A DNA stretch of 64,000 bases from an uncultured Actinomycetes bacterium (GTDB taxonomy: Bacteria > Actinomycetota > UBA4738 > JACQTL01): assembly GCA_963772375.1 (NCBI GenBank), contig CAVYXG010000001.1:856086-920085 (forward strand). Reading direction: 5' to 3'. Below, one piece after another: positions 3,966 to 60,427 of the stretch (the first letter of the stretch is position 1; each line of letters begins with the position of its first letter). Position numbers and translations under genes: made by a program. Under the pieces are notes generated by a model. The model saw only the letters and a list, made by a program, of their open reading frames with translations. It was not told the DNA's origin and made no database searches.

Positions 3966-5091
3966 CGCGCCCTCGCTTCCCCACGTCGTCGTCCGGGGCG
4001 CCGGCGGCCGCGGACGCGTCCGGCCGGTCGGCGGCGACCGCCGCGCCGCGATCGGACGACGGCAGCGTACGTCCGTCGTCGGCGCCGACCCGCAGCCAGT
4101 ACCCCACCGGGAACAGCCGCAGCCGGCCTCCGATCAGCCCCCACAGCCCGCGTGGCGCCCAGATCGCCACCACGATGGCGACGAGCCCGACGATGATCAG
4201 GTACAGGGCGCCGTGCTCCGACAGGCTCTGCTGCAGTGCGAAGAACACGATGCTGCCCACGATGGGCCCCTCGATCGTGCCGATGCCCCCGATGATCGTC
4301 ACGAAGATCATGTTCGCCGACCACTGCACGGTGAACGCGGCCGGCGCCTGGACGTTCAGCGCGCTGATGATGACGATGGTCCCGGCCGCGCCGCACCCCG
4401 CGGCGGCGACCAGGAACACCAGGCGCCGGGCCCGCGCGACGCGGACGCCGAGGCTTCGCGCGCCGACCTCGTTGTCGCGGATCGCCGTGAGGACCAGGCC
4501 GAGCCGGCCCCGCAGCAGCAGGTAGATCGCCGCGAGCGCCACGACGGCCACCGCCAGCGACGCCCAGTACGTGATGGCGGTCCGGAGTGTGGGGTCCATG
4601 CCCTCGATGCCCGGCAGTGGCGCGCCGGTCCCGCCGCCGAGCGACTTGAACCGGCTGATGACCTGCAGGCAGACCTCGGCCACGACCCACGTGGCGATCG
4701 CGAAGTACCCGCCCCGCAGCCGGAGCAGCAGCAGCGCGATCGGGATCGCGATCACGGCGCAGCCCACCGTCGCGATCGGGATCGCGACGAACGGCTCCAC
4801 GCCGTGCTGCGCGAGGATCAGCACGAAGTACGCCCCCAGCCCGATGAACGCCTGCTGCCCGACCGAGACCATGCCGGCGTAGCCGGCCAGCAGGTTCCAC
4901 ATGCTCGACATCGTCAGCAGGACGAAGAAGTCGGTGAGCGTGTCGGTTGTCCCGGCGTACGCGAGGTACGGAAGGTAGGCGAGCACCGCAACGACCGCGA
5001 CCCCCAGGAGCAGCGTCCACCGCCGCGGGCGGCTCGACCGGGTCACCCGGATCGCTTCGTGCGTCGGGGGGCGTTCCAGTGTGGAGCTCAT
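3955..5091 (-). CDS. branched-chain-amino-acid-type ABC transporter permease (LivM-like)
   Basis: Hydrophobic 378-aa segment MSSTLERPP... with LivM-family topology. ATG at 5091 overlaps the upstream permease stop. Confidence 0.8.
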   Translation of the reverse strand: MSSTLERPPTHEAIRVTRSSRPRRWTLLLGVAVVAVLAYLPYLAYAGTTDTLTDFFVLLTMSSMWNLLAGYAGMVSVGQQAFIGLGAYFVLILAQHGVEPFVAIPIATVGCAVIAIPIALLLLRLRGGYFAIATWVVAEVCLQVISRFKSLGGGTGAPLPGIEGMDPTLRTAITYWASLAVAVVALAAIYLLLRGRLGLVLTAIRDNEVGARSLGVRVARARRLVFLVAAAGCGAAGTIVIISALNVQAPAAFTVQWSANMIFVTIIGGIGTIEGPIVGSIVFFALQQSLSEHGALYLIIVGLVAIVVAIWAPRGLWGLIGGRLRLFPVGYWLRVGADDGRTLPSSDRGAAVAADRPDASAAAGAPDDDVGKRGRDGS

Positions 5092-8895: not shown

Positions 8896-9738
8896 TCAGG
8901 CCGGCGTGGCGCGCGCCGCGACGGGCTGCGGGGTCGTCGACTGCCGGAGCCCCAGCGCGCGGAGGTCGGCCTCGATCTCGGCGACGGCCGCGCGGAGGTT
9001 CGGGAGGATCCGGCCGATCATGTCGTCGACCGTGACACGGCTGGCGTAGGCGGAGATGTTCGCCCCCGCGATGGCCGTCCCCCCCGCGTCGCGGATCGGC
9101 ACGGCGATCGATCGGAGCCCGTCCTCGAGCTCCTGGTCCGCGAGGGCGAACCCCTGGTCGCGGACCTCGGCGAGGATCTCGCGGAACCTGGCCTTGTTGA
9201 CCACCGTGCGGCTCGTCAGCCGGTCGAACCGGAGGCTCGCGAGGCGGCGGTTCAGCTCGTCCGGCGGGAGGTTCGCCAGCAGCACGCGCCCCTTCGAGCT
9301 CGCGTGGACCGGGAACCGGGTCCCGACCGGGACCGCGACCACCAGGATGCCGGGACCTCGGACCCGCATGATGTCGACCACGTGGTCGCCGTCGAGCACC
9401 GCGATCGAGGACGACTCGCGGACTGTCTCGACGAGCGTCTCGAGGTGGGGCTGCGCGATCTCGGGGAGGGTCATGCTCGACAGGTACGCGTAGCCCAGCT
9501 CCAGCACCCGCGGTCGGAGCGAGAACTCGCGGCCGTTCGAGGCGACATAGCCGAGGTCGACGAGGGTGAGCAGGAACCGCCGCGCCGCCGCACGCGTGAT
9601 GCCGGCCTCTCGGGCCACCTCGGTCAGGGTGAGGCGGGGGCGTTCGGCGCTGAACGCCCGCATCACGGCCAGGCCGCGGTCGAGCGACTGGACGAAGACG
9701 CTCCGCTTCGCGGGGGGGCGGCTCAGCTCGTCGGCCAT
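8896..9738 (-). CDS. IclR-family transcriptional regulator (PcaR/PcaU-like)
   Basis: HTH LTEVAREAGITRAAARRFLLTLVDLGYV plus an IclR effector domain. ATG at 9738. Divergent from the ALDH/pobA operon. Confidence 0.8.
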   Translation of the reverse strand: MADELSRPPAKRSVFVQSLDRGLAVMRAFSAERPRLTLTEVAREAGITRAAARRFLLTLVDLGYVASNGREFSLRPRVLELGYAYLSSMTLPEIAQPHLETLVETVRESSSIAVLDGDHVVDIMRVRGPGILVVAVPVGTRFPVHASSKGRVLLANLPPDELNRRLASLRFDRLTSRTVVNKARFREILAEVRDQGFALADQELEDGLRSIAVPIRDAGGTAIAGANISAYASRVTVDDMIGRILPNLRAAVAEIEADLRALGLRQSTTPQPVAARATPA

Positions 9739-26030: not shown

Positions 26031-26113
26031 GCGAGAGTGGCGAAACGGCAGACGCGCCGGACTTAGGATCCGGTGCCCGAAAGGGCGTGGGGGTTCGACT
26101 CCCCCCTCTCGCA
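26031..26113 (+). tRNA. tRNA-Leu (TAG), intact; attachment site for downstream islands
   Basis: Acceptor GCGAGAG/CTCTCGC. Anticodon loop CTTAGGA. Long variable arm TGCCCGAAAGGGCGT. T-arm GGGGGTTCGACTCCCCC. Confidence 0.85.
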
Positions 26114-26633
26114 CCCCCTCTGACCTGCGGATCTTTGGTCAGAAGGACCACGAACGGGATCCGCCGCCAACCGAGGAATGGCCTTCTTGCCCACGCTTGC
26201 TCACGATCGCTCGGTTCGCATAAGAATGATCGAGGCGCGGGCAGGGCCCAGGGCACGTCCAACTTCCGAGAGTCGGTCAAGGTCAAAGCCCCTCAAAGCG
26301 CAAGGCGAGGAAGCCCTCTGACGACTTCTTCCGTGGCGGCCTCGGGGCGCGGTCGTCGGCCGCCGGTCTACGGGGCGCAGGCACTGAGCAACGGACCTCG
26401 CGCTGGCAGCCTCATGTAGTTGCCTCCATCTACAGCCGGCGGCACGTTCCATCCGGCGCGGACCCTGAGCTCGGGTTCCGCGTGGCCCGACGGATGACCT
26501 CCCGGACCAGGTCTTCACTGATGCTCGGCCAGTAGCACTCGACCAAGAAGGTCGCCGTGGTTCCTCCCATCGATCCGGGGGCCGTCGGAGAGGCTCTCGA
26601 ACTCAGCCAAGAGCCCTCCATGGAGTCTTCCCG

Positions 26634-32000: not shown

Positions 32001-34367
32001 AGGACGAACCGGCGTCTGCGCGGCCTGCTCGGTGCGGTCGCACTCTTTCTGGTGGTCGCGTTGATCGCCGCCGGCATCGCGCTCGTGCAGGGAGGCCATG
32101 CGCGGCGCTCGGCGACGGTCGCGCTTTCCCAGAGCCTCGGGGCCCAGGCGATCGCCGAGACACAGCTCGACACCGCACTGCTGCTCGCCGAGGAGGGCGT
32201 GAACCTGGACGACTCCCTACGAACGGAGAGCGACCTACTGGCTGTGCTGCTCCACAGCCCCTCAGCGATCCACGTCCTACATGTCGGCGGGATCGGCGCC
32301 CCTCCGGAGGACATCGTCGTGAGCCCCGACGGCGGGACGCTCGCCGTGCTGACCCGGGATCGCACCCTGCGGTTCTACGACACTTCGACGCTCCAGCCGA
32401 TTGGCAAGCCGGTGCACGACGTGCCCGCGTACAACTCCCGCAGGCCGGCGTTCACCCCCGACAGTTCCGGGCTCTGGGTCCTCCGCGGACCCGGGATCCA
32501 GATGATCAACGTTCGGACCGGCCGGGTCGAGAGCACGATCAGGCTCCACCAGGATGTGGAGAACGTCTACTCGCCCGTTCTTCTCTCTCGGGACGGCCGG
32601 GTCGTGTACCTCCAACTCGAGGGATGGGAGAGCGTCGCAGCGTGGAACACCTCGACGGGACGCCGCCTGGCCGAGGTCAACGTCCCCGGGCTGTCGCTCG
32701 GGATGCTCGCCCTCGCCCAGGAAGCGGGAGAGGTCGTGGCGCTCACGACCCAGGGCGGAGGGCGAATCCAGGTCCGGGACGGCAGGACGCTGGCCCTGGA
32801 GCGGTCGTTTCCCGTGCAGCTTCCTGCGGCGGACCAGTACCAGCTCGCCGTTTCACCGGACGGGCGCACGGCCGCTTGCACCCTGTTCCACCCCGGCGCC
32901 GACCAATCGATCCGATTCGTCGACCTTCGGACCGGCCAGGTCAGGAAGGGCGCCGGCGACCAGGCGGGCGAAGGCCAGGTCGCGTTCTCCCACGATGGCA
33001 GGACAGCCGTCAGCGTGACCGACGACGGCTTCAATATCTCTGTCTGGGATGTCCCTTCGGCCACGCAGGTTCGAACGCTGAGCGGCCACGCCGGAGAGAT
33101 CCTGCAGGCCGCCTTCGATCCCTCGGGGCGAACCCTTTACTCTGCAGCGGATGACGGGAACGTGTTCGCGTGGGATCTCTCGGGACATCGGAGCTTCGGT
33201 CGCTCGTTCACTGCCAGCCAAGGGTCATTCGGTGGGCCCAACGTCGGTCACCATTTCCCATACTTCTCCGCGTCCCCGGATGGGAAGAGCATCGCAGTCG
33301 CCCACGCGACGCAGTTCGATCCCGATGGGGGGGTCAGCACGGGCGGCGAGGTCAATATCGTCGACCTCGCTACCGGGCGGGTCACGACCCGGGTAAGGGT
33401 CGCGGGTCGAGTGCCCGGCATCGACTCGGTCATCTACGCGGAGTTCTCCCCGGACGGCACCGAACTCCTCGTCACCCCCGGCCCCTCGAGCAACGGAGAC
33501 ATCACCCTGTGGCGGTTGGATGGTCACACGGCCAGCCTCGTCCGCACGTTCACCGGACTCAGCGCGACCCCGGTTCGTGACGATAACGGGTTTTGGAACG
33601 CCCCCTGGGCGACGTTCAGCCCTAACGGCAAGTGGATCGCCGGGGTGGACCGACGCGAGAACGGCACCAGCCGAATGATGGAATGGGATGCCGCCACGGG
33701 ATCCGAGCGCGTGGCGCCCCTGGATCTCCATTGGACATCCACCGACGGCCTGCATTTCGATGGCCTCAACCAGAACGTGGTGTATAGCCCCGACGGGTCG
33801 TTGATTGCAACGTCCGTCTTGGGTGACCGTACTGTGATCGTGGACGCAAGGACGCTGAAGCCGGTCCGTACGCTGCCTGATCCAGAAGGGGTCGCGTTCG
33901 TCGCGTTCTCACCGACTAACGACAGGCTGCTCGCGGAGGGGTCGTCGAATGTGGGAATCGTTCGCCTGATTGACGTGACGACAGGCAAACAGGCGGCCGA
34001 AGTAACGGCCTCCAACCCGGGACTGTGGAGCGTCCAGTTCGACCACACCGGGAGCATGCTGCTGACAGATGCGCCGGATGGTGTGGCGCGGTTGTGGTCC
34101 GTCCCCGACCTCCAGCAGATCGGATCCGACCTTCCAGGCCTCTCTAGCGTGGTGGGGGCGGCCACTTTCGCGGGCCGGGGAAGGTCCACGATGGCCGTGC
34201 TCCTTTACGCGACCGGCACGGCGTTCGCATACACGGCGTCGCCCTCCGCGTGGGAGCGCCAGGCGTGCCTCGTGGCCGGTCGAAACTTCACGAAGGCGGA
34301 GTGGGCCCGATACGTCGGCGACCGTACGTACGAGGATGTCTGCCCTGAGTATCCGCCCGGATCCTGA
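29091..34367 (+). CDS. multidomain signal-transduction protein: SARP (OmpR-wHTH+BTAD) - Ser/Thr protein kinase - NB-ARC/STAND P-loop NTPase - TM helix - WD40 beta-propeller
   Basis: Starts MRFLVLGPLEV (SARP). Kinase motifs GEGAFGLVY, VAIK, HRDVKPGNVLL, DFG, APE. P-loop GPSGSGKSS. Single TM LLGAVALFLVVALIAAGIALV. Then many WD repeats (LSGHAGEILQAAFDPSGRTLYSAADDGNVFAWDL). 1758 aa. Confidence 0.85.
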   Translation: MRFLVLGPLEVTNAVGPIPLGGPKQRLVLANLAVRANAVVLAETLIDQLWGDEPPDSAKNTLQTYISHLRKALGPDRIEGRSSGYVLHLDPHELDATRFEQLLGEARAADGQPDRVGGILREALAMWRGSAFADLAVEGSLAGEIARLEELRLGAIEDRIAADLASGRHTGLIGELEGLTREHPLRERLWAHLMVALYRSGRQADALAAFRRARKLLAEELGVDPSPELQRLQDRILKQDPDLEVTGEPLRGYRLLDKIGEGAFGLVYRAVQPQVGREVAIKSIHPELANQPDFVRRFEHEAQVVARLEHPHVVPLYDYWRDPDGAYLVMRLLRGGSLEDLLEQGPLDSTRAATFLDQVAGALAAAHRQGVVHRDVKPGNVLLDEEGNAYLTDFGVALDAGAPEQTAGLMVRGTPAYLSPEQIRLEPATGQSDIYALGVVLYEMLTAEHPFPESSLRVLLDRHMHEPLPSARRVRPEIPPAVDLVIARATAKDAGGRFADPLEFAAAFRGAIQGTGARLAATEELRNPYKGLRAFLEADAGDFFGRDVVTRRLVERMAEPGASARFLCIVGPSGSGKSSVVKAGLVPALRRGVIAGSELWYIVEMMPGPHPLRELDTALLSVATSPQPTLVEELERDDLGLLRAVDRVLPDPSAELVIVVDQLEEVFTLVDDQVERARFLEAIVAAATHRMSRVRIVSTLRADFFDQPLSVRGFGDLLAARTEAITPMSPEELERAISGPAECVGLGIEPGLVAAMVADVVDRPGALPLLQYALTELVERDEVSSLSLESYRSIGGVSGALARRAERLYGAMDEPGRDACRQLFLRLVTLGEGTEDTRRRVRRSEIPAMDGATDGVIESFGRHRLLSFDRDALSREPTVEIAHEALLRQWPRLEDWLGEDAEARALRGHLIDAARQWDAGGRDDSELYRGARLAGALDFSSRDGRHLNELERSFVALSREASERETRRIRRTNRRLRGLLGAVALFLVVALIAAGIALVQGGHARRSATVALSQSLGAQAIAETQLDTALLLAEEGVNLDDSLRTESDLLAVLLHSPSAIHVLHVGGIGAPPEDIVVSPDGGTLAVLTRDRTLRFYDTSTLQPIGKPVHDVPAYNSRRPAFTPDSSGLWVLRGPGIQMINVRTGRVESTIRLHQDVENVYSPVLLSRDGRVVYLQLEGWESVAAWNTSTGRRLAEVNVPGLSLGMLALAQEAGEVVALTTQGGGRIQVRDGRTLALERSFPVQLPAADQYQLAVSPDGRTAACTLFHPGADQSIRFVDLRTGQVRKGAGDQAGEGQVAFSHDGRTAVSVTDDGFNISVWDVPSATQVRTLSGHAGEILQAAFDPSGRTLYSAADDGNVFAWDLSGHRSFGRSFTASQGSFGGPNVGHHFPYFSASPDGKSIAVAHATQFDPDGGVSTGGEVNIVDLATGRVTTRVRVAGRVPGIDSVIYAEFSPDGTELLVTPGPSSNGDITLWRLDGHTASLVRTFTGLSATPVRDDNGFWNAPWATFSPNGKWIAGVDRRENGTSRMMEWDAATGSERVAPLDLHWTSTDGLHFDGLNQNVVYSPDGSLIATSVLGDRTVIVDARTLKPVRTLPDPEGVAFVAFSPTNDRLLAEGSSNVGIVRLIDVTTGKQAAEVTASNPGLWSVQFDHTGSMLLTDAPDGVARLWSVPDLQQIGSDLPGLSSVVGAATFAGRGRSTMAVLLYATGTAFAYTASPSAWERQACLVAGRNFTKAEWARYVGDRTYEDVCPEYPPGS

Positions 34368-34372
34368 CTTAG

Positions 34373-34447
34373 CTTAGGATCCGGTGCCCGAAAGGGCGTG
34401 GGGGTTCGACTCCCCCCTCTCGCACCACGTCTGGCCTGCGGATCTTT
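34373..34447 (+). repeat. direct repeat of the tRNA-Leu(TAG) 3' half (att-like junction copy 2)
   Basis: 53 nt identical to tRNA positions 33-76 (TTAGGATCCGGTGCCCGAAAGGGCGTGGGGGTTCGACTCCCCCCTCTCGCACC) plus a conserved CTGnCCTGCGGAT flank. Starts 6 bp after the stop of the giant gene. Confidence 0.85.
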
Positions 34448-37842: not shown

Positions 37843-37957
37843 CCGGTCCACTTGCTCACACCCTGCTCACGACAGATCGGGACCGGGTGCCATGGAACGA
37901 CACCAGACGACACGAATCGACGCGTCCACGCCCGGTTCGTGCGTGGCCGTACCCGCT

Positions 37958-38027
37958 TTAGGATCCGGTGCCCGAAAGGGCGTGGGGGTTCGACTCCCCC
38001 CTCTCGCACCACCTCTGACCTGCGAAT
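37958..38027 (+). repeat. direct repeat of the tRNA-Leu(TAG) 3' half (copy 3)
   Basis: Same perfect 53-nt core plus CTCTGACCTGCGAAT flank. The CTTGCTCAC-like motif lies about 90 nt upstream (37845-37870). Confidence 0.85.
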
Positions 38028-40358: not shown

Positions 40359-43106
40359 ATGGCACGTCGTATCGGATCCAGAGCCGGCGCACGGCTCCGG
40401 CGGGTCATGTGGCTGACCGCAGCACTGTCGCTCACGGTTCCGGCCGCTTTGCTAATCGGCCCGTCGAGCGCGATCGCGGAGGACTGCTCCTCGGGCGCGC
40501 ACTCGCTCTCGCCGCCCGGATCGCGGGTGTACCCCGAGATGGGCAACGGCGGCTACACGAGCGTCCACAGCGACGTCTACATCAACTACGACGCGATCGC
40601 GAACCTGTTCCTGCCCGGCACCCATGCCGACCTGGGGGTCACGTCGACCCAGTGCCTGACGGACCTCAGCTTCGACTTCGAGCGGACGAACGGCTCCACG
40701 GGCGGCACCGGGCCGAACTTCACCGTCAACTCCGTCGAGGTCAACGGTCAGCCGGCGACGTTCGCGTTCGTCCAGCCGACGTACCCGGGTGACCCGAACG
40801 GCGACAACGACCCGGACCCGGCCGCCCACGCGGTGTCGAACGTCAACCCGGTCAGCGCGACCAACCCCAACCCGCCCGCCTGCTCGCCCCAGACGAGCGG
40901 GAACACGCAGAACGGGACGCAATGCCCGGCGAACAAGCTCGTCGTGACGCCGGCCGCCCCGATCCCGAACGGCGCGTCCTTCGTGGTGACGGTCGACTAC
41001 ACGGGCCGGCCCGGGGTCCACGTGGACGGTGACGGCTCGACGGAGGGATGGTTCCGAATCTCTACCGCGGGCCAGGAGGGCTCGTTCGTCACGACCGAGC
41101 CCGTCGGCACCGACTCGTGGATGCCGCTGAACAACTTCCCGACGGCCAAGCCGACGTACGACTTCTACGACACGACCAACATCGGCAAGACGGCCATCGG
41201 CCCCGGCGAGCTCGTCGGCTACACGGCGCCGGTCGGAACCACGTACCAGGCCGTCCCGGCGCCGGCGAGCAACCCGCCGGACGCGAACTTCCCGGCCGGG
41301 TCGGTGACGTGGCACTGGCACTCCCCCGAGGGGATCGCCAACTACCTCGTCGAGAACTCGATCGGCCAGTACGACCTCTCTGCCCGCACAAGCCCGACGA
41401 GCGGCATCCAGTACTGGGAGGCCCAGGCGAACTCCATCACCGCGGCGCGCAAAGCGGTCAACAAGACCGCGATGGACAACCAAGAGGACATCACGACCTT
41501 CCAGAGCATGTTCAACGGGCCGTTCCCGCTCACGACCGATGGGGTCGTCGTGGGCACCCCGTCCGCCAGCTTCGAGGAGGAGATGCAGGGCAAGATCACC
41601 TTCGCCGGCGGACAGATCGGCGGCTCGACGGGAACCTCGCTCGGCACGTTTAACCACGAGAACATGCACCAGTGGTTCGGTGACAACGTCGCCGAGGACC
41701 AGTTCCGCGACACCTTCTGGAAAGAGGGCTGGGCCACCGTCGGTGAGTACCTGACGACGGCTCGGTCGGCCGCGACCACCGCCGGCGGGCTCAACACTCT
41801 GGCCGGCCAAGTCGCGTTCGACAACAGCCTGATCAACCGGTTCAACACGAACTACGGCTCGGGGAGCGGCTCCGCGTGGACGGGCGCGCCCTCGAACCCC
41901 TCCGTGACGAACCTGTTCAGCACGCAGAACACCTACACGCGGCCTGGAACCGCGTACCTGGCGCTTCGGCAGATCCTCGACGCGTCGATGACGCGGCCGG
42001 CGAGCGACCGCTGGATCGCGACGATGCAGAACATCCAGTCGACCTACGGCGGCGGCAACATCACCGAGCCGCAGCTCGAGGCCGCGTTCTTCCACTTCCT
42101 GCCGAACCAGAGCGCGGGGTGCAGCACCAAGCTCGACCAGTTCTTCACGCAGTGGTTCGACACGGCGTTCCCGGCGCCGAACAACTCGACGAACAAGCCC
42201 CAGATCACCGGGCCCGGCATCAACGCGGCCAACGGGGACCACTTCTACGACGACGCGAGCGCCTGTACGCGGGCCACCCAGACGATCACGTTCGGGTCGA
42301 TCGCCGACCGTACCTACGGCGACCCGGACTTCACCGTGAGCGCGTCCTCGGACTCGGGACTGCCCGTATCGTTCTCCGCGGCGGGGAACTGCACGATGGC
42401 CGACGCGACCACCGTCCACATCACGGGCGCCGGCTCGTGCACGGTGACGGCGTCCCAGGCGGGCGACGGCGTGTTCAAGCCGGCCTCGGTCGACCGGTCG
42501 TTCTCGATAGCCAAGGCCCCGACGACCACGTCCGTCGTCTCGTCGGTCAACCCCGCCAACAAGGGCCAGTCGGTGACCTACACGGCCACGGTCGAGGCGA
42601 CGCCGCCCTCTCTGGTCCCGCCGGGCACCGTGACGTTCAACGACAACGGCTCGGCCATCGGGTCGTGCACCGGCGTCGCGCTGAGCGCGGGCCAGGCCGT
42701 GTGCACGGTGAGCTACGCGAACACCGGCAACCACGCGATCACGGTCACGTACGGGACCACGACCGACTTCCTCGGCTCCACCTCCCCGGTGCTCGGGGAG
42801 ACGGTGGCCAAGTGCGGGTCGTCGCTGGCGGCCTGCAACCTGAACGGCGCCGACCTCCGGAACGCCGACCTGCACGGCGCCAACCTCCACGACGCGAACA
42901 TGAACAACGCGAACCTGTCCGGTGCCGATCTCGCGGGAGCGAACCTGCACAACGCGAACCTGAAGGGGGCCGACCTGTCGGGTGCGGACCTGACCGGTGC
43001 GAATCTCTCGGGGGCCAACCTCAACAAGGTCACGTGGTCCGACACCACCTGTCCAGACGGCACGAACAGCGACGCGGATGGGGGGACCTGCGTCCACAAC
43101 CTGTGA
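40359..43106 (+). CDS. secreted M1-like (gluzincin) zinc metallopeptidase with Ig-like domains and C-terminal pentapeptide repeats
   Basis: Signal peptide [45 protein letters not shown]-x18-E motif. Ig-like repeats ([20 protein letters not shown]... / [16 protein letters not shown]...). Pentapeptide run [70 protein letters not shown]. Confidence 0.8.
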
Positions 43107-43265
43107 GGAGGGCGCAAGGGGTCCTGTCGTGTGCGGGGGCTCGCGTGCACTCGACCGTGGTAACCGCGCTAGGCTGGGGCGCCTCTCTAGTGTCCTGAGT
43201 CAGAAGTTCACAGGATGTTCACGAGGATGTCCCCAGGCATGGCTCGCGTCGTGCCAGGATGCGGT

Positions 43266-43772
43266 ATGGCCCGAGGACGACCGCTCCAGGAGCTCGCGGT
43301 GAGCGAGGAGGACCGGCAGGTGCTGGAGCGGTTCACCCGCCGGACCACCACGTCGCAGGCCCTTGCCCTGCGATCGAGGATCGTCCTGCGATCGGCCGAG
43401 GGCGCCACCAACCGGGAGGTGGCCCGGCAACTGGAGGTGACGCCCCAGACCGTCGGGAAGTGGCGGGCCCGCTACATCGAACGAGGCGTCGAGGGCCTCC
43501 TGGACGAGCCCCGGCCCGGGGCCCCCCGGAAGGTCACCGACGACAAGGTGGAGGAGGTCGTGGTCAAGACCCTCGAGTCCAAGCCGACCGACTCCACCCA
43601 CTGGTCCTCAAGGGACATGGCCAAGCGAGTGGGGCTGTCGCAGTCCACCGTGGCCCGGATCTGGCGGGCGTTCGGACTGCAGCCGTGGCGGAGCGAGTCC
43701 TGGAAGCTCTCCACCGACCCCCAGTTCGCTGCACCGATGGGCAACCGACGAGCCAACCCGTCGGTTCGATGA
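43266..43772 (+). mobile_element. IS630-family transposase N-terminal fragment (copy A)
   Basis: HTH/winged-helix region LQELAVSEEDRQVLERF...NREVARQLEVTPQTVGKWRARY...STVARIWRAFGL. No DDE domain follows. Confidence 0.6.
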
Positions 43773-43785
43773 CCTGTACAACCTC

Positions 43786-45220
43786 GTGTACGACCCGGCG
43801 TTCCTAGTGGTGGCATGGCGCCGGGTCCGTGGCAACAAGGGCGCCCGCACGGCCAGGGGTGGACGGGCAGACCGCCCGATCCATCGAGGCCGGACGGGGC
43901 GTGGAGGCGTTCTTGGACGATCTGCGGGCCGACGTCAAGGCCCGTACGTTCACCCCACTCCCCGTGCGGGAGCGGACCATCCCCAAGCCAGGAGGAACGA
44001 AGGTGAGAAGGCTGGGGATTCCCACGGTCCGCGACCGCGTCGTCCAGGCGGCCCTCAAGCTGGTGCTCGAGCCCATCTTCGAGGCGAGCTTTCAGCCGTG
44101 TTCGTACGGCTTCCGTCCGAAGCGCCGGGCCCAGGACGCCATCGCCGAGGTGCACTTCTTCGCCTCTCGTACCTACGAGTGGACGGTAGAAGGCGACATC
44201 GAGGCGTGCTTCGACCAGCTGTCGCACTCCGGCATCATGGACCGGCTGCGGCGGCAGATCGGAGACAAGCGGGTCCTGGTCCTGGTGAAGGCGTTCTTGA
44301 AGGCCGGCATCCTCAACGAGGGTGGGGCCGACGAGCACCCGATCACCGGCACGCCCCAAGGGGGCATCCTCTCACCGCTGCTCGCCAACATCGCCCTGTC
44401 CGTCCTCGACGATCACTTCGTCGAGGCGTGGGAGGAGGCGATGTCCACCGAGTACGCACGCCACAAGCGGCGCCGACAGGGACTGGCCAACTACCGCCTG
44501 GTCCGCTTCGCGGACGATTTCGTGGTGCTGGTGTCCGGGACCAGGGAGCACGCGGAGGCGTTGCGTGAGGAGGTGGCGACGGTGCTCGCGCCGATGGGAC
44601 TGCACCTGTCGGCGGAGAAGACGAGGATCAGCCACATCGACGAGGGGTTCGACTTCCTGGGCTTTCGCATCCGGCGGGAGCTCAAGAGGGGGACGGCGAA
44701 GCGCCACGTCTACACCTACCCTTCGAAGTCCGCGCTCGCGGCGGTCAAGGCGAAGGTGCGGGCGCTGACCCGACAGGCATGGAACCAACCGCTCAGCACC
44801 CTGATCCGCCGGTTGAACCCGGCGCTTCGGGGGTGGACCAACTACTTCCGGCACGGGGTGTCGAAGGCGACGTTCAGCTACCTCCGGTCCTTCGTCTGGT
44901 ACCGGGTGATCCGCTGGCTTCGCCGCAAGCACCCTCGGGCCTCATGGAAGGAACTGCGGCGGCGATACCTCGATCGGTGGTGGCCGCGGCACGGCGAGAA
45001 GGAGCTGTTCAACCCCGGCGCGGCGGTCGTCAGCAGATACCGCTACCGGGGGAACCGCATCCCCTCGCCGTGGTCGGAGCGGACCGGGCTGACGGCGGGG
45101 TAGTCACCGGCATGGATCGTGGAGAGCCGGATGCGTGGAGACGCGCACGTCCGGTTCGGAGGTGCGGGTCGGGGAAACGGGCTGATCGAAAGACGGCACC
45201 GCGCCCCGGCCCGACCCTAC
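43786..45220 (+). mobile_element. group II intron remnant: RT/maturase ORF (N-terminal frameshift) plus domains V-VI; 5' domains I-III missing
   Basis: RT motifs (RRLGIPTVRDRVVQ, FVRFADDFVV, maturase/X domain). Frame change near 43855 between the AWRRVRGNKGA and VDGQTA segments. Domain V GAGCCGGATGCGTGGAGACGCGCACGTCCGGTTC at 45123-45156. Intron ends ...CTAC at about 45220. Confidence 0.7.
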
Positions 45221-45802
45221 TCGTCGGCGGAGATCACGAACTCCCCAGCGTGCAGGCGCCTTCCCTTCCACCGCCGCTCGTACAGGTCGAGCGCCCGGGC
45301 GGCCTTGGGCTCGAAGTCGGGATCGCGGGGGAAGATCCAGCTCCTGAAGGTCCACGGCCGGATGGCGTCCTGCGACAGCCACCGCCAGATGGTCGAGTCC
45401 GACACGCTCGCCACGATCCCCCGGCGCAGGACCTCGGAGCGGATGTCGGGGACGTGCAGGCGGGAACGTGGGACGCCGAGCTCCGTCGGGAGCTGGCAGG
45501 CCAGTGCTTTGACCTCAACGACCACCAGAGGGGGAAAACGAGCTGGGTCTTCCCCGGCGGGGCCGTTCATCCAGTCCGGCAAGCCCCTCCTCGAGGAAGC
45601 GCTTGCGCCACTTCCACACGAGTTCGCGAGGAGTGTCGAGGCGGTGGGCGATCTCCTCGACTGGGACGTCATCGGCCGCCATGAGCACGATCTTCGCTCG
45701 GATCACATCTCGATACGGTAACGAGTACTTCCGGGCCCGTGCCTCCAGGACAGCCCGGTCCAGTGGGCCCAGACGCACGGTCAGTGGGCTCGTTCGCGAC
45801 AC
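45217..45802 (-). mobile_element. IS630-family transposase fragment (copy B), truncated at the group II intron junction
   Basis: N-terminal HTH (95-aa ORF) and, after a frameshift, the middle part ending ...GEFVISADE exactly where the intron 3' end abuts. Confidence 0.6.
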
Positions 45803-45952: not shown

Positions 45953-46518
45953 TCGGTCAGAGCGGTCTCGGATGTGGCCCGGGAGAAGACGCGAGATGGG
46001 CTTCTTGCTCACGCCTGCTCACGATCGCTCGGTTCGAATGAGGATGATCGAGGCGTCGGCAGGGCCCCATGGCCACGTCCAACTCTGTCCTCGTTAGCGA
46101 AGAGCGCTTCGATACGGGCTCCCATGTCGGGGAGGCTGCCATGGCTGGCCTGGACACTCAGCTGAAGCCAGTCCGCTGAAGCCTGCCGCGGAGAAGGGCT
46201 CGTCGCCCCCGGGGACCTGGACTGCGATCAGCGTTGGGAGGCGACTCCCGCGGGGAGGTGCGGGGGCGGAGGGTCAGTCTTTGTCAGCTGCCCAGACGGG
46301 GTTCTGACTTGAGCGCCCATGACGCCCCCCTCTACACGTCTCGGGCTGTCTGGTTACGGCTCCTGCCGGATGATCCTGGCGAGCCGTTCCGCGTCGACGG
46401 GCCCCGCGAGCCAGGTCAAGGGCCACGGGGGACGCCCCATGGACGGCCACGAGATCTCCCCGCTGCTGGCCAGCGGTGGTCCCCATCCGCGGCCACGAGA
46501 AGTCCCCACTTGTCTTGC

Positions 46519-47296
46519 TCAGCCCAGGGGCACCACTCCCTTGCCTGACGTGGCCTCCGCGAAGCGGAAGCTCTTCTCGCCCTCGGTCACGACGACATGG
46601 GCATGGTGGAGCAGCCGGTCGACGGTCGCCGTGGCGAGCGTCTTCGGCATGAGCTCGTCGAAGCCCGCCGGGTGGAGGTTCGAGGACACGGCCACCGAGC
46701 GCCGCTCGTAGGCCGCGTCGATGAGCCGGTAGAACGCCTCCGCGGCCTCCGCCCCCACCGGGAGCATCCCGATGTCGTCGACCACGATGAGATCGGCCCG
46801 GCAGATCCGGGCGATGGCCCTCGCCACCGAGTCGTCGGCGCGGTGGCGTCGGATGATCGCTCCGAGCGTCTCGAGGGAGAACCAGCTCACCCGGAGCCCC
46901 CGCTCCACCGCGGCGCTGCCGAGCGCCTCGAGGAAGTGCGACTTCCCGGTTCCCGACGGACCGCACAGCGCCAGGTTCTCCCGGCGCTGCACCCACTCGA
47001 GCGTCCGCAGGGCGTGCTGGGTGGGACGGGGGATCGAGGAGGCCTGCTCGTCCCACGCCTCGAAGGTCTTGCCGGAGGGAAACCCGGCGCTCCGACGTCG
47101 GTTGGCCATCATGGCCCGATCCCGTCCCGCCACCTCCTCGGCCAGCAGGACCCGCAAGGCTTCGGCCGGGTCCCACCGCTGGGCCTTGGCCGTGGCGAGG
47201 ACGTCGCGGGCCGCCGAGCGCAGGTACGGCAGGCGCAGACGGCGGAGGTGGGCGTCGACCTCGTCGAGGGGAGAGGGATCGATGCTCGAACTCATC
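46519..47296 (-). CDS. istB: IS21-family transposition helper ATPase IstB
   Basis: MSSSIDPSPL... Walker A GPSGTGKSH, DDIG Walker B. 258 aa. Confidence 0.85.
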
Positions 47297-48776
47297 GTCC
47301 GAACCCCTCCCACGCGGTGGTCCCCCGTTGCAGGCTGTGGGCCTCCGTGGCCTGCGAAGTCGGTCCATCCGCCGATGTGTCGTGAGCGAGGATCGCTGCG
47401 AGGTCTCCGTCGGCGAACCGCCCGCACGTCGCGGCGGTCCCCAGGGCTCGGTCGAGCGCCTCCGGCCCGTACAGCTTCGAGAGCTCGAGGGCCTCGGCCA
47501 TCTTGGAGCGGATGCGCGCGGCGCCGACCGATGCCGCCTCGATGAGCCACTGCGTCGCGCCGTTCCCCAGGGCGAGGAACGCCTGCTCCTCGGGCGTGCG
47601 AGCTCGGGGGACCCTGGCCAGGGGCCCGGAGGGCCGCTGCGGGTAATGCGCGTCGTCGATCATGGGTCGGCCCGGCGTCGATCGGCGGTGGCGGGCCACC
47701 TCCCGTGCTCCGGCAGAGGGGTCGACCGAGACCACCACCACCTGGTCCCCCTCGGTGCGGACCCACACCCGGCGGCCGATGAGCGAGTACGGCACCGAGT
47801 ACAGGACGCTGTGGAACGACACCACGGAGTTCGACGCGACCGTGCGGGTCTGCCCGAACGCGGTGGTGTACGCCTCGCCGGGGACAGGATGCAGGCGCCG
47901 TCGCTCCTCGGCCAGCAGCTCCGCCGGCGGACGGCCCGTGGCCCGGTGGGGCCGGGCGTTGACCCGTTCGCAGAACGCCTCGCACGCTGCCCGGAGCTCT
48001 TCGAAGGAGCGGTACGCCGGCAGCAGGTTCGCCTCGGTGGGGACGAGGTCGGCCTTGGCGATGCGCACCGTTGCCTCCGAGCCGCCCTTGGACTCGGGGT
48101 CGGCGGGGACGCACGTCGCGATGGTCAGGCCGTAGTGCCGGGCCGCGGCCACGATCTCGGGATGGCGAACGGGGATGCGGGCGATGTGGGTGGTGGTCAC
48201 GGTCTTCTCGTTGTCGGTGAGGCCGTACGTCGGGACGCCCCCGAACGCCCGAAGGGTCCGGTCGATCCCCGCGACCACGGTGGGGAGCGTCTTGTCCAGG
48301 ATCGGGAACACGACGCGGTAGCGGCTCCACGCCAGCCAGGCGCAGAACAACTGCGTGGGGCCCTCGGGGACCTCCGGCCCGGTGCCGTAGTCCCACTGGA
48401 ACCACATCCCGGGCTCGGGGATCCACGGGCGGTACACCCGCAGCCGTCCCTCGCGGAAGCGCTGCCTGGCCCCGGCCACGGCCCGCCTGGTCGTCCGCTC
48501 CGAGCCCTCGTAGCCGAGCGCGATGAGCTTCTCGTGGCAGCGGTCGGCGCGGATCTTGCCGTGGGAGCGCTCCACCCACTCCTCGATCTTCGGCAGGAGT
48601 GGATCGATGAGCTTCGGACGGTCGATCCCCGAGGATGGCGACCGCCCCCCGTCCCGGAGCGCGACGTAGCGCTCGACGGTGTGATGGTCGACCCCCGCGA
48701 GCTCCGCCGCGGCGCGGTAGGAGCCAGTCAGGTCGAAGGCCTCCAGCATGTCCATGATCTCCTCGTCAGACTTCAT
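47292..48776 (-). CDS. istA: IS21-family transposase IstA
   Basis: 494 aa. HTH N-terminus. DDE region (WFQWDYG...TDNEKT). Confidence 0.85.
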   Translation of the reverse strand: MKSDEEIMDMLEAFDLTGSYRAAAELAGVDHHTVERYVALRDGGRSPSSGIDRPKLIDPLLPKIEEWVERSHGKIRADRCHEKLIALGYEGSERTTRRAVAGARQRFREGRLRVYRPWIPEPGMWFQWDYGTGPEVPEGPTQLFCAWLAWSRYRVVFPILDKTLPTVVAGIDRTLRAFGGVPTYGLTDNEKTVTTTHIARIPVRHPEIVAAARHYGLTIATCVPADPESKGGSEATVRIAKADLVPTEANLLPAYRSFEELRAACEAFCERVNARPHRATGRPPAELLAEERRRLHPVPGEAYTTAFGQTRTVASNSVVSFHSVLYSVPYSLIGRRVWVRTEGDQVVVVSVDPSAGAREVARHRRSTPGRPMIDDAHYPQRPSGPLARVPRARTPEEQAFLALGNGATQWLIEAASVGAARIRSKMAEALELSKLYGPEALDRALGTAATCGRFADGDLAAILAHDTSADGPTSQATEAHSLQRGTTAWEGFGR

Positions 48777-49792
48777 CTGCCTCCCTCTCCAGGGGCCGAC
48801 TGCGGACTTGGACGTGCGCAGTCAAACCCGGGGAGGGAGGTCCTCCTGGGAGCAGGAAACGGTCAGTTGACGTCAGGCCGGGGAGATGTCCCGGCCGCGG
48901 GTGGGGAATCCTGGTGGCCGCCAGTGGGGAGTTCCGTGGCCGCCGGTGGGGAGCTTTTCACGGCCGCCGACAACTCCCGCCGCCACCCGCCAGCAGGTGC
49001 TCGAAGGACACGTTCCCGTCCGGATGCCGGACGAGCCGGAACCAGGCGGGGATCTCCGTCTTCAACTCCTGACCCGCCATCAATGCGGGGCCGATCTCAT
49101 CGGAGTCCCGGGGCAGCGTCACGCCGTCGCCCCGCCACGGCGGCGGCTCAGAATCCATCTCCCCTCCTCCCACCGACGGGCATGGACGCGAACGTGACGC
49201 CGTTGCACGGTTCCGACGGCACGGCCGATGCGCCTCACGTCGCACTCCAGATGCTGAACCCGCCCTCGGCCGACCTCAGGTTGTTCGTGCCGACGACGGC
49301 CCGGATTCCGAGATAGCGAAGGGCCCGTCCGAAGACCGGCCCTTCATGTCAGGTCTCGTTGCCCTACGAACCTTGCGGCCCGCCGGTCACCGCGTCCCGA
49401 CAGGTGCGGACGATAGCGGGCCACCGCTTCCCCGGGCAAGCTCAGGACCTGTTCTTGTCCCTCTTTCTTCTCATCCCCGTACATGAGCCAGATTCAGGCA
49501 GTTCACGAATCGGAGGTCGGGAGGTGGACGCCAACATGTCCGACTACGATCCGCCGCTGTTCCTCATCGAGACACCAGTAGATGCCGGCGCACGTGGCGC
49601 CACAACCGCGAGACGTCGTTGGCCCGGCGCTAGCGGGTGAGGGAGCCTGAGCGATACGACGGCCGGGCCCGGACGCCGCCTTCTCTCCACGGCGTGAGAC
49701 ACCCGGGAGGCCCTGGGATGAGGAGTCGACTGGCCCTGAACCGCCCCGCCCGTCGGCGCTCACGCTGATCCAACGGCCGCAGGAGAACGCCC

Positions 49793-50245
49793 GTGATCGC
49801 GATCGAGGAATGCATCGTCATCGATCTCCCCCGTCGGCGGGTCTTTCCGGTCGCGGCCAGACCCGAGAACATGCCGCTGTGGAACTCAGCGGTCCTCGAG
49901 AGCGAGCTCGACGGCGCACTCATGGAGGGCACACGGGTCGTTCAGCGCATCCATCTCTTGGGCCGCCGGTTCCAGACCGCCTTTCGGGTGACCTGCTACG
50001 AACCCCCGCGCCAGATCACGTACACGAGCACCGCGGGGCCGATGGACATCCGAGGAACCATGGAATTCGTCCCCCTGCAAGGCCGAACGCTCGTTCGGTG
50101 GACCGTGGCCGGTAGTGGTCGAGACTTCTTCCGGGTCGGGGAGGGCGTCCTCGTCAGGGCCGGCCGGCACGAGATGCGCTCCTGCCTGGAGAACCTGAAA
50201 CGCTTCGTGGAGCAGACTGCGTCGATCCCAGCCGGGAGTCGATGA
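49793..50245 (+). CDS. SRPBCC-superfamily protein (polyketide cyclase/dehydrase-like)
   Basis: 150 aa with a START/Bet v1-like pattern (IEECIVIDLPRRRVFPVAARPENMPLWN...). Confidence 0.65.
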   Translation: MIAIEECIVIDLPRRRVFPVAARPENMPLWNSAVLESELDGALMEGTRVVQRIHLLGRRFQTAFRVTCYEPPRQITYTSTAGPMDIRGTMEFVPLQGRTLVRWTVAGSGRDFFRVGEGVLVRAGRHEMRSCLENLKRFVEQTASIPAGSR

Positions 50246-50520
50246 CGTAGTCGGCCACCTCGATCACGCCTCACTCCAAGGCCTTGACACGGAGGTCTCG
50301 AGATCAAGGGTTCTGCTCCCCGTTCTGCCGCCCCGTCTCGCGCTCGCGGCGATCCCGGGTGACCGTCGTATGGGAGTTGCAGAAGGCGTCGTAGGGGGCG
50401 GCACGGTCACCCAGCCCGGATGACGCAAGGGGCCTCTTCAGATGGGTCCCGTCACCACGGCGTCACCACGTAGGAGCACCGGCGAGCCCGCCGAGGACCT
50501 ACGGCAGCACAGCCTCCCAG

Positions 50521-50585
50521 GTCAGAAGGGGTGGGCGAGGGGGGAGTTGAACCCCCACCCGGTTGCCCGGACAGGATCCTGAATC
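50521..50585 (-). repeat. inverted 3'-half fragment of a tRNA-Leu(CAG)-like gene
   Basis: Reverse complement reads anticodon stem-loop CAGGA-TTCAGGA-TCCTG, variable arm TCCGGGCAACCGGGT, T-arm GGGGGTTCAACTCCCCC, acceptor CTCGCCCA. No matching 5' half. Followed by a CTGCTCACGCCTTGCTCAC arm-like motif. Confidence 0.6.
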
Positions 50586-50724
50586 CTGTCCCTGAACCGC
50601 TCGACCAATGCGAGATCCTGCTCACGCCTTGCTCACGACGGCTCGATTCTGACCGGCATTGGACAACACATAACGGCACTGGCCGAGGCGGACGTCGTGG
50701 GTCTCGTGCCTGCCGGCACTCGCT

Positions 50725-50795
50725 TTAGGATCCGGTGCCCGAAAGGGCGTGGGGGTTCGACTCCCCCCTCTCGCACCCCCTCTGACCTGCGAATC
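50725..50795 (+). repeat. direct repeat of the tRNA-Leu(TAG) 3' half (copy 5)
   Basis: Perfect 53-nt core plus CCTCTGACCTGCGAAT flank. ATGGCCTTCTTGCTCACGCTTGCTCAC follows about 70 nt downstream. Confidence 0.85.
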
Positions 50796-50933
50796 TTCGT
50801 TTCCTGCCGGCCCTCCGACCCTTCGCGACCAGGTCGGAAATGGCCTTCTTGCTCACGCTTGCTCACAGGGACGGCACCCAGACACTTCGTGCGATGCTTG
50901 AACCAGGGGGGTGAGATCTGGATCAGCCTGCCG

Positions 50934-58489: not shown

Positions 58490-59200
58490 TCACCCTTCAG
58501 CGCGATGACCTCGGCGTGGTGGATGAGGCGGTCGACCATGGCCGCGACGGCCACGGGGTCCCCGAAGATCTCCCCCCACGCGCTGAACGTCTTGTTGCGA
58601 GCTCACGATCAGCGAGGCCCGCTCGTAGCGGGAGGCGACCAGCTCGAAGAACAGGGCCGCGGCCTCGGGGTCGAACGGGATGTACCCCACCTCGTCCACG
58701 ATGACGCAGGGGAACCCTGCCGGAGCCGCTCGAGCTCGTCGTCGAGGCGCCCCGCCCGCCTGGCCGCCCCCAGCCTGCTCACCCACTGGTGGGCGGTGGC
58801 GAAGGCCACGCGGTGCCCGCGGCGGGCCGCCTGAACCGCGAGGGCGATCGACAGGTGGGTCTTGCCAGTGCCCGGCGGACCGAGGAACACGACGTTCGTC
58901 GCCTCGTGCCAGGAAGTCGAGCTGTGCCAGGTGGGCGATCTGGGTCCGCTTCACCGAACGGGCGAAGGAGAAGTCGAAGTCGTCGAGGGTCTTGACCTGG
59001 GGGAACCGGGCGGCCTTGATCCGGGCCGAGCCCCCGTGAGTTTCCCGGGAGGCGACCTCCTCGGAAAGGACCTGGGCCAGGTACTGCTCGTAGTCCCAGC
59101 CCTCGGACCGGGCCCGCTCGGCGAGCGAGGCCGCCAACGCCGCGATGCGGGGCGCCTTGAGAGCGCGGGAGAGGTACGCCAGCTCGGCTGCGGCGGCCAT
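58490..59200 (-). pseudogene. istB: IS21-family istB, disrupted by frameshifts
   Basis: The N-terminal IstB region is in one frame and Walker A (GPPGTGKTH) in another (58609-58890). The middle is low complexity. Confidence 0.55.
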
Positions 59201-60427
59201 CTACGCCACCCCCGCCGCGTCGTCGTAGCGGGTGAGGTCGACCTCGTCGAGTTCGACGTCGCCGCGTTCGAGCCGGGACGTGGCCTCCCGGGCCAACCGG
59301 AGCGCCCGGGCGTGGCGAGGGTCGAGCATCACGTCGGCCGGAGCGAAGCTCCGCACGTGCCGGGCGATCTCCTCCCCTTCGAGGTGCACGACCACCTCTC
59401 GCGGTGCCACCCGGACCTGGACACGGCGGCGCACGAGTCCCGGCGGCACGGAGTAGTCCACGTCCCGGACGCGGACGAAGCCGTCCTTCTGGACACGGAC
59501 CTCGAGGCGCTGGTCGACGTCGGGGAGGGGGTGCGGCAGCGCGTGCAGGTACCGCCGCTCGGCGTCGAGGGCCTCGCCGACCCTGCCCCCGACGCGGCGG
59601 TGGTGCCGGCGGTAGGCGACGTCGGTGGTCCAGGCGTCGCACTGGGCTTGCAGGTCGTCGAGGTCGGCGAACGAGCGAAGGGGCAGGAACGAGCCCTCCA
59701 GGTAGCCGTTGGTCCGCTCCACCTGGCCCTTCGACTCGGGCTTTCCCGGGTCGAGCACGATGAGGCGCATCCCGAGGTACCCGCACATGGCGGCGACCTC
59801 AGGGTGCAGGACCGCGGTGGGGCCGGCGCCGGAGGCGATGATCGAGGAGTCGTTGTCGACGACCATGGCGTCGGGGACCCCGCCGAGCCGCGTGAGGGAC
59901 GCCACCACGGCCTGCAGGAAGTCCGCCATCGTCTTGGACAGGCTGTACACCGCGGCGTGGGCGGCCGAGTGCGGGAGCGTGGTCACCCATCCGTACACCT
60001 TCCGGCTCGCGGAGGGGCTGACGGGGATCCTCGTGCCCTTCGGCTCCCACCAGTCGCCGTGGGCGATCTCGCCGGGGAGGTAGGTGGTGCGCTGGTAGCT
60101 CCGGGCGGCCAGGAACGTCGGGCGGACCGTGGCGATGTGGTCCTTGAGGATCGTGATGCCACCCGAGTACCCCTCTGCCCGCAGGTGCTCGAGGACGACG
60201 GTCGCCGGCGCCTCCGCATCGGAGTCGAGCATCGCGGCGACGGAGTCCTTGAACGGGTCGAGCTTCGACCCCTGTGCCTCCCGGACGTAGCGGGGCGGGT
60301 CGGGCAGCTCGAGGAGACGGATCACTGTCGTCCGGCTCATCTGCAGTCGTTTGGCGATCGTCGCCTTGGCCAGGTGCTCGCGGTGGTACAGCCGGTGAAC
60401 CTCGGCCCAGTCGTGCACGTCGTACAC
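59201..60427 (-). CDS. istA: IS21-family transposase IstA (second IS21 element)
   Basis: 408 aa. HTH, then a DDE core (WWEPKG...VVDNDSSI...). Terminal tandem repeats GAGGTGTTCAGT(T/G)TTC at 60480-60530. Confidence 0.8.
   Translation of the reverse strand: MYDVHDWAEVHRLYHREHLAKATIAKRLQMSRTTVIRLLELPDPPRYVREAQGSKLDPFKDSVAAMLDSDAEAPATVVLEHLRAEGYSGGITILKDHIATVRPTFLAARSYQRTTYLPGEIAHGDWWEPKGTRIPVSPSASRKVYGWVTTLPHSAAHAAVYSLSKTMADFLQAVVASLTRLGGVPDAMVVDNDSSIIASGAGPTAVLHPEVAAMCGYLGMRLIVLDPGKPESKGQVERTNGYLEGSFLPLRSFADLDDLQAQCDAWTTDVAYRRHHRRVGGRVGEALDAERRYLHALPHPLPDVDQRLEVRVQKDGFVRVRDVDYSVPPGLVRRRVQVRVAPREVVVHLEGEEIARHVRSFAPADVMLDPRHARALRLAREATSRLERGDVELDEVDLTRYDDAAGVA

Follow-up and report, generated by a model that had tools for sequence, protein, structure and literature searches.

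A probable orphan attachment site derived from tRNA-Leu(CAG) in a tRNA-Leu(TAG)-anchored cassette array of an uncultured actinomycete

The tRNA-Leu(TAG) array and its cargo

The window, i.e. the whole stretch of 64,000 nucleotides analysed in this study, has a G+C content of ~70% and contains one complete tRNA-Leu(TAG) gene (26031-26115) together with four more exact copies of the 3' part of that gene, all on the plus strand, at 34383, 37967, 45890 and 50734. A 44-nt exact repeat of this TAG core occurs five times in the window. The five identical cores mark a tandem array (26031-50866) that is anchored at tRNA-Leu(TAG), with segments of 8.3, 3.6, 7.9 and 4.8 kb between them. Every TAG copy is followed by the flank CCCTCTGACCTG, which in copy 4 reads CCTTCTGACCTG. 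The last core, from the anticodon loop to the 3' end, occupies 50724-50792 (plus strand) including its flank and aligns with the other four in alignment A1.

Besides the cores, the array is marked by pairs of the heptamer TGCTCAC. The motif TGCTCAC-N3-5-TGCTCAC is found exactly five times, in each case on the plus strand: it follows cores 2, 4 and 5 and precedes cores 3 and 5; a pair with one mismatch follows core 1. The pair after core 5, TGCTCAC-GCT-TGCTCAC (50850-50866, plus strand), is a P' arm of the TAG family, and cores 1, 2 and 4 each have this motif 73 nt downstream. Its presence after core 5 suggests a fifth, open-ended unit of the array. The pair before core 5 is the direct repeat TGCTCAC-GCCT-TGCTCAC (50619-50636, plus strand), and the same motif is found at the same distance from core 3 (37853-37870). 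The core 3 region (37853-38027) and the core 5 region (50619-50794) are 78.6% identical, with homology from exactly the first TGCTCAC onward, which precedes the loop by 105 nt in either region. This identifies the pair at 50619-50636 as the P arm belonging to TAG core 5. Within the TAG array, a P arm is present at cores 3 and 5 only.

The cargo of the array looks conflict- or signalling-related, with an 1844-aa BTAD-kinase-nSTAND1-WD40 protein, a PD40 protein, two proteins with cyclase domains, a GT4 protein, a pentapeptide/M1 protein and an SRPBCC protein. Just 5' of TAG core 2, at 34350-34383, there is a near-palindrome, CCGGATCCTGACTTAGC|TTAGGATCCGG, with a duplicated CTTAG, which overlaps the stop codon of the 1844-aa STAND gene. 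An aberrant recombination event in the anticodon stem-loop may have left it as a footprint, or it may be due to chance, GGATCC being itself palindromic. ARAGORN calls a tRNA-Ala(CGC) on the minus strand at 42856-42928, inside the 1052-aa pentapeptide/M1 ORF; the call has no Rfam hit at the gathering threshold and is probably a false positive.

A group II intron (43829-45220), consisting of an RT/maturase ORF (RVT_1 + GIIM) followed by an Rfam Intron_gpII domain V (45122-45220), lies among IS630-like fragments (an HTH ORF at 43215-43772 and a minus-strand transposase fragment at 45217-45672) at the right end of segment 3. Two IS21-family elements with istA and istB are present, at 46450-48900 and 58490-60427, with no DNA similarity detected between them. 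The first of these interrupts cassette 4 (45.9-50.8 kb), in which the order is TAG P' arm, IS21 element, SRPBCC gene, a piece derived from tRNA-Leu(CAG), and TAG P arm. In this IS21 element istA is at 47292-48776, and IstB is readable in frame -2 of 46030-47300. The SRPBCC gene (49793-50245, plus strand; Polyketide_cyc2 in Pfam) is the cargo of cassette 4. The distance from the last cargo gene to the P arm is 11-18 nt in cassette 2 and in a cassette of a related metagenome locus (L014), and 374 nt in cassette 4, where the gap contains the CAG piece.

The tRNA-Leu(CAG)-derived piece in cassette 4

The minus strand at 50588-50530 is a core derived from tRNA-Leu(CAG), in the orientation opposite to all five TAG copies. 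It begins with CAGGA (50588-50584), the 5' strand of the anticodon stem (tRNA positions 27-31), followed by the loop TTCAGGA (50583-50577) with the anticodon CAG at 50581-50579, the complementary TCCTG, the long variable arm TCCGGGCAACCGGG, the T arm GTGGGGGTTCAACTCCCCC (50558-50540), which is the only such T arm in the window, and the 3' acceptor strand CTCGCCCACC, which includes ACC and has its last base at 50530. The whole core thus reads CAGGA-TTCAGGA-TCCTG-TCCGGGCAACCGGG-TGGGGGTTCAACTCCCCC-CTCGCCCACC. It is of pure CAG type, as core 4 is of pure TAG type, and neither hybrid cores nor signs of an inversion were found. The earlier note had already placed the anticodon arm, variable arm, T arm and 3' acceptor of tRNA-Leu(CAG) on this strand, opposed to the TAG copies, and both sequence and coordinates hold.

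When one genome per species was scanned, 44 nt of the piece had 11 exact matches, all in MAGs of uncultured Actinomycetota, and 10 of the 11 are complete tRNA-Leu(CAG) genes from 10 MAG species. By BLAST, complete tRNA-Leu(CAG) genes (loci L003-L006 and L010-L011) match the core at 100% identity over 58-62 nt, which is far beyond chance. These genes read GGGCGAGTGGCGGAAyTGGCAGACGCG-CAGGATTCAGGATCCTG..., and the identity of the window piece to them begins exactly at tRNA position 27 and extends from there to the 3' end only. Their 5' part GGGCGAGTGGCGGAATTGGCAGACGCG is replaced in the window by GGTCGAGCGGTTCAGGGA, so that the 26 nt 5' of position 27 are not tRNA sequence. The junction at 50589-50618 (minus strand) consists of a pseudo-acceptor GGTCGAG (50606-50600) and the filler CGGTTCAGGGA where a D arm would be expected; it has no homology to the 5' half of real tRNA genes, and no match was found for these 30 nt between the CAG core and the TAG P arm. 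The description of the piece as lacking a 5' half is therefore essentially right. The TAG copies and the CAG half-sites of two other loci (L007 and L014) start at the same tRNA region, and by its sequence 50588-50530 is a copy of the tRNA 3' part beginning at or near the anticodon loop, as would be expected of an att site.

Downstream of the tRNA end, in a part that the earlier note had overlooked, the piece continues as the TAG copies do. The 3' flank CCTTCTGACCTG (50518-50529, minus strand) is of the element type and is common to the TAG copies and to attL sites of a CAG family found in other loci (alignments A2 and A4). It is followed, 61 nt past the tRNA end, by the direct repeat GTGGTGAC-GCC-GTGGTGAC (50451-50469, minus strand), the only such pair in the window, which recurs with the same repeat and spacing in eight metagenome loci. 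In alignment A2, this pair shares columns with the TGCTCAC-GCT-TGCTCAC pair that lies 73 nt after the TAG copies. Therefore, the CAG piece is a paralogue of the unit of TAG core, flank and arm pair, with a different arm sequence. The core and both of its GTGGTGAC arm repeats are perfect. Overall, the piece in the window consists of a CAG core and a P' arm, with neither the tRNA 5' part nor a P arm of its own; no tRNA-Leu(CAG) gene, second CAG core or CAG-type P arm is present in the window.

The extent of the piece can be bounded from the other side. Homologues of the SRPBCC gene (86% identical in amino acids, 88.8% in nucleotides) were found in five contexts (L025-L029) that are free of cores and arms, and the homology of these contexts with the window stops at 50332. 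Therefore, the CAG remnant is at most ~285 nt long. A transplanted CAG cassette made up of the SRPBCC gene and the CAG site was rejected on the same grounds, the gene being unlinked to CAG-type sites elsewhere. A match of 45301-45393 to one of these contexts (L025), considered as synteny or circular permutation, turned out to be the IS630-like transposase fragment. An exact-sequence look-up of the P-type ATPase retrieved no other assembly on record across the site. An independent short-read contig (L001; Logan, ERR11718635) is 100% identical to window 49329-50504; its end at 50504 falls between the CAG core and its arm pair. This end could reflect a branch of the assembly graph at sequence common with the real tRNA-Leu(CAG) site of the genome, or low coverage.

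Sister cassettes at tRNA-Leu(CAG) genes

A metagenome scan with the CAG T arm, the acceptor and a loosely specified flank as query found at least 12 loci. Ten of the 12 listed are complete tRNA-Leu(CAG) genes followed by the flank (..TCTGACCTG.G), and seven of these ten (L015, L016, L018, L020, L021, L023 and L024) also carry, ~60 nt further on, the arm motif (C)GTGGTGACGC(C/A)G(T/G)GGTGACG, i.e. a GTGGTGAC-N3-GTGGTGAC pair as in the window. The eighth locus with the motif is L014, where one copy of the repeat is retained at the second core. The site most similar to the window piece (50588-50448) is that of L015, L018 and L020, at 84.5% over 142 nt. In alignment A4, CGTGGTGACG does not vary. 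The CAG piece thus has the flank and arm repeats that are common to bona fide attL sites of the same family. Scans of viral contigs gave no hits.

The tRNA-Leu(CAG) 3' part is repeated downstream in several of these loci: after 2.25 kb in L015, L018 and L020, after 1.6 kb in L002, and in L014, together with the flank, at 2.78 kb and again at ~9.3 kb. Such a repetition of the tRNA 3' part 1.6-2.8 kb downstream (L014, L015 and L002) is the signature of integrated cassettes. The CAG-family cassettes are 1.6-2.8 kb long and have no integrase, and the cargo of the CAG loci is ordinary (a methyltransferase, an RNase H-like protein, AsnC and a sigma factor). A direct GTGGTGAC pair, the only P arm of the CAG family that was observed, precedes the second core of L014 by 138 nt. 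The junction of this core, ...CGC|TTCAGG, shares CGC|TT with TAG cores 3 and 5 of the window.

Some further features of these loci were noted. In L013 (~4880-4910, minus strand) and at the end of L022, the usual flank of a CAG-family attL is followed, ~62 nt past the tRNA end, by a different direct repeat, AGGTACC-CCGCTGC-GGTACC, which may be a third arm type. At 9160-9230 of L014, a truncated core, consisting only of the T arm variant GGGGGTGCAACTCCCCC and the acceptor, lies just upstream of the third CAG core (9293-9364); truncated core remnants are therefore not confined to the array in the window. In two loci the tRNA-Leu(CAG) gene adjoins FHA-domain genes (FhaA_N + FHA in L014, FHA in L016).

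Related genomes have empty sites for both isoacceptors. In one of them (L034), whose glycogen debranching enzyme is 87% identical to that of the window, the sequence after tRNA-Leu(TAG) is a native, unrelated flank without arms. The MAG tRNA-Leu(CAG) genes of L003-L006 and L008 likewise have diverse native flanks, and the element-type flank is absent from all of these sites. Therefore, the flank and the arms are element-borne. Since the same flank, spacing and repeat are found at tRNA-Leu(CAG) loci, a sister cassette family that targets tRNA-Leu(CAG) exists, and the suggestion of the earlier note that related elements target more than one tRNA-Leu gene is borne out by the seven complete genes with flank and arm pair. 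There are two sister cassette families, one for each tRNA-Leu isoacceptor.

Origin of the CAG piece and relation to known systems

It is likely that the CAG piece is an orphan, truncated att site (core and P' arm) of a cassette family that targets tRNA-Leu(CAG) and is the sister of the family in the TAG array. The observations behind this interpretation are sequence homologies, spacing, repeat structure, cassette arrays beside intact tRNA genes, and empty sites. The two families have a common site plan, with an upstream direct arm pair, a core from the anticodon loop to the 3' end, the flank TCTGACCTG and a second arm pair 60-73 nt downstream, and with arm repeats that differ between the families (TGCTCAC in the TAG family, GTGGTGAC in the CAG family). 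The layout is that of a lambda-type attP, in which a tyrosine integrase binds the core and the arm sites; integration duplicates the tRNA 3' part. A tyrosine recombinase supplied in trans may move the cassettes. No Phage_integrase or other recombinase domain was found by Pfam in any sizeable ORF of the window, nor in 20 ORFs of the related loci (L013-L016, L018, L019 and L021), and a six-frame translation of 46030-47300 gave IS21 IstB only; the only recombination-type enzymes present are the IS21 transposases and the group II intron RT. Beside the CAG- and TAG-family sites of the examined loci, likewise, no integrase or other recombinase was found, and the mechanism of recombination is therefore drawn from the anatomy of the sites only.

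In canonical cassette junctions, CGC or AGC stands where the remnant has tRNA positions 27-31 (CAGGA). For the remnant, which keeps CAGGA, an attP is therefore less likely than a truncated attL, i.e. a tRNA::cassette junction. An illegitimate or IS-associated rearrangement, rather than a site-specific crossover, probably attached it to the TAG P arm of cassette 4, on the outer side of that arm. A partner site, whether an intact tRNA gene or a second direct core, is present for the CAG family in L014, L015 and L002 and absent for the window piece; lacking both a P arm of its own and such a partner, the remnant is probably recombinationally inert. Two observations speak against reading it as a relic: the core and arm repeats are perfect, which is unexpected in an old inert relic, and the remnant lies only 30 nt from the TAG P arm, which is perhaps more than coincidence. 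A model of integration at a secondary site was also considered and rejected, as the CAG-type P arm that it predicts further left is absent.

The CTGCTCAC-CTTGCTCAC motif was also considered as part of the CAG half-site or of a composite att site. The TGCTCAC-GCCT-TGCTCAC motif does lie beside the half-site on the plus strand, but the homology of the core 3 and core 5 regions led to its rejection as part of the CAG site, since it begins the P arm of TAG core 5. A functional composite, bidirectional att site, in which cassette 4 has an outward TAG core and an inverted CAG core sharing the TGCTCAC pair, so that the circle integrates at either tRNA-Leu gene, would agree with the intact CAG core, flank and P' arm pair at canonical spacing, with the position of the TGCTCAC pair between the two cores, and with the palindromic GGATCC in both cores. 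Yet the central arms belong to the TAG type, run opposite to the CAG core and stand 36 nt from its loop, unlike the direct GTGGTGAC pair at 138 nt in L014; the P arm of core 3 is the same but lacks a neighbouring CAG core, and no second example was found among 37 loci. Such a composite site is thus quite improbable. The earlier note had suggested inter-site recombination or an inversion; the piece would then be the scar of an integrase-mediated inversion or exchange between the tRNA-Leu(TAG) and tRNA-Leu(CAG) arrays. The inverted orientation of the CAG core, the 80-82% identity of the two cores over 63-69 nt and, again, the shared palindrome would suit it, but a crossover in the core would give hybrids, and core 4 and the CAG core are pure types; the breakpoint (50589-50618) is 5' of the anticodon stem; and the window has no CAG-type P arm, no second CAG core, and none of the FHA or fhaA-type genes that neighbour tRNA-Leu(CAG) in related loci. 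Since the break is outside the expected crossover region and neighbouring cores are not hybrid, a site-specific inversion or exchange is disfavoured, and quite doubtful, and an illegitimate or IS-associated join is favoured.

The piece might instead be a degenerate or mis-sequenced second tRNA-Leu(CAG) gene, a pseudogene, or a tRNA-like RNA without a D arm that is carried as cargo. Its score against the Rfam tRNA model (RF00005) is 26.8 bits (E = 0.002), and the Rfam alignment takes GGTCGAG as acceptor strand with 6 of 7 pairs; RNAfold predicts a three-way junction with z = -2.1. The score is, however, below the gathering threshold of 29, the alignment collapses the D-arm columns, the predicted fold has no D arm, ARAGORN makes no tRNA call, the cassette-type flank and arms lie downstream, and no promoter-like or terminator-like sites were found near the piece. 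A 6/7 acceptor pairing is estimated to occur by chance about 1 in 10 times, within ~15 offsets. A decayed full-length tRNA starting from GGTCGAG would need ~5 separate deletions in its 5' part next to a perfect 3' part of 59 nt and was rejected, the heptamer being read as a chance match on that account; 26 unrelated nt on the 5' side against 59 nt of 100% identity on the 3' side is not a pattern of decay. Nor was a foldable tRNA, which would have made the piece simply a second tRNA gene, obtained by correcting a sequencing error, for ~9 D-arm bases would have to be added, beyond any single-base correction. With no cloverleaf, finder call, score at the Rfam gathering threshold or full-length homology, the CAG piece is not a functional class II tRNA-Leu gene; a second tRNA gene is ruled out by ARAGORN, Rfam, folding and comparison with real genes, and the whole group of tRNA-like readings is most improbable.

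The orphan att site proposed here has precedents. Integration into tRNA genes leaves elements between a full and a partial tRNA, as in the tycheposon islands of Prochlorococcus, and repeated integration pushes older elements inward, so that extra partial tRNAs are scattered in the island (10.1101/2020.12.28.424599). CIMEs, described as decayed ICEs or IMEs, are without integration and transfer genes and keep attL and attR, and they undergo tandem accretion at att sites (PMC5704250; also Pavlovic et al. 2004, as cited there). Partial-tRNA remnants in tRNA-anchored islands are an outcome of repeated integration and decay (10.1101/2020.12.28.424599; PMC5704250). The CAG remnant fits a known kind, that of tRNA-island remnants and integrase-less, att-keeping elements. 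Like those of tycheposon islands, it is a partial tRNA within a tRNA-anchored island; unlike them, it comes from an isoacceptor other than that of the anchor and lies in inverted orientation, neither an intact nor a fragmented integrase was found here, and the host is a high-GC, actinomycete-like soil bacterium whose sites have conspicuous pairs of arm repeats. The likeness to CIMEs holds for the host cassette rather than for the CAG remnant: TAG cassettes 2 and 4 consist of P' arm, cargo and P arm with flanking cores and no integrase. However, the cassettes here are 1.6-8 kb long, no remnants of modules for conjugation or integration were seen in them, and cassettes of this small size are found again in many metagenomes; nor does the CIME description include orphan sites of a different specificity within a cassette.

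Lambda-type attP sites, with core and arm-type sites for the integrase, also occur in actinomycete integrative elements such as pSAM2. As in these, the part of the tRNA between the anticodon loop and the 3' end is covered by the core, and short direct repeats lie on both arms, tens to ~140 nt from the core; however, no integrase or excisionase gene is adjacent, and the TGCTCAC and GTGGTGAC repeats are only putative protein-binding sites. The arrays also resemble those of integrons in that small, mostly one- to three-gene cassettes without a recombinase, each with one site, are stacked at a fixed chromosomal site. In contrast to integrons, the sites are tRNA-derived cores with arm repeats and not attC hairpins, the anchor is a tRNA gene, and neither an IntI gene nor an attI/Pc platform was seen here. 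A literature search on this type of element in Actinobacteria returned nothing specific. An undescribed integron-like system in soil Actinomycetota, with integrase-less tRNA-Leu-core cassettes in at least two specificity families, a recombinase in trans, and the CAG site as a live docking site or a footprint of traffic, is an unlikely reading; if it were true, cassettes could switch their target isoacceptor.

What is less ordinary is that the isoacceptor of the remnant differs from that of the array anchor, and that it exposes cassette families which are small and widespread and have no recombinase. The CAG piece alone is a relic, yet it was the marker that led to the sister family at tRNA-Leu(CAG), which has the same site plan with other arm repeats, occurs widely in metagenomes from soil and sediment and consists in every case of short, integrase-less cassettes. 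In annotation, such fragments should be taken as att sites and not as tRNA pseudogenes. For those who seek the missing recombinase, the two families offer two natural specificity variants, in core and in arm. If the remnant were active, it would show target switching between tRNA isoacceptors.
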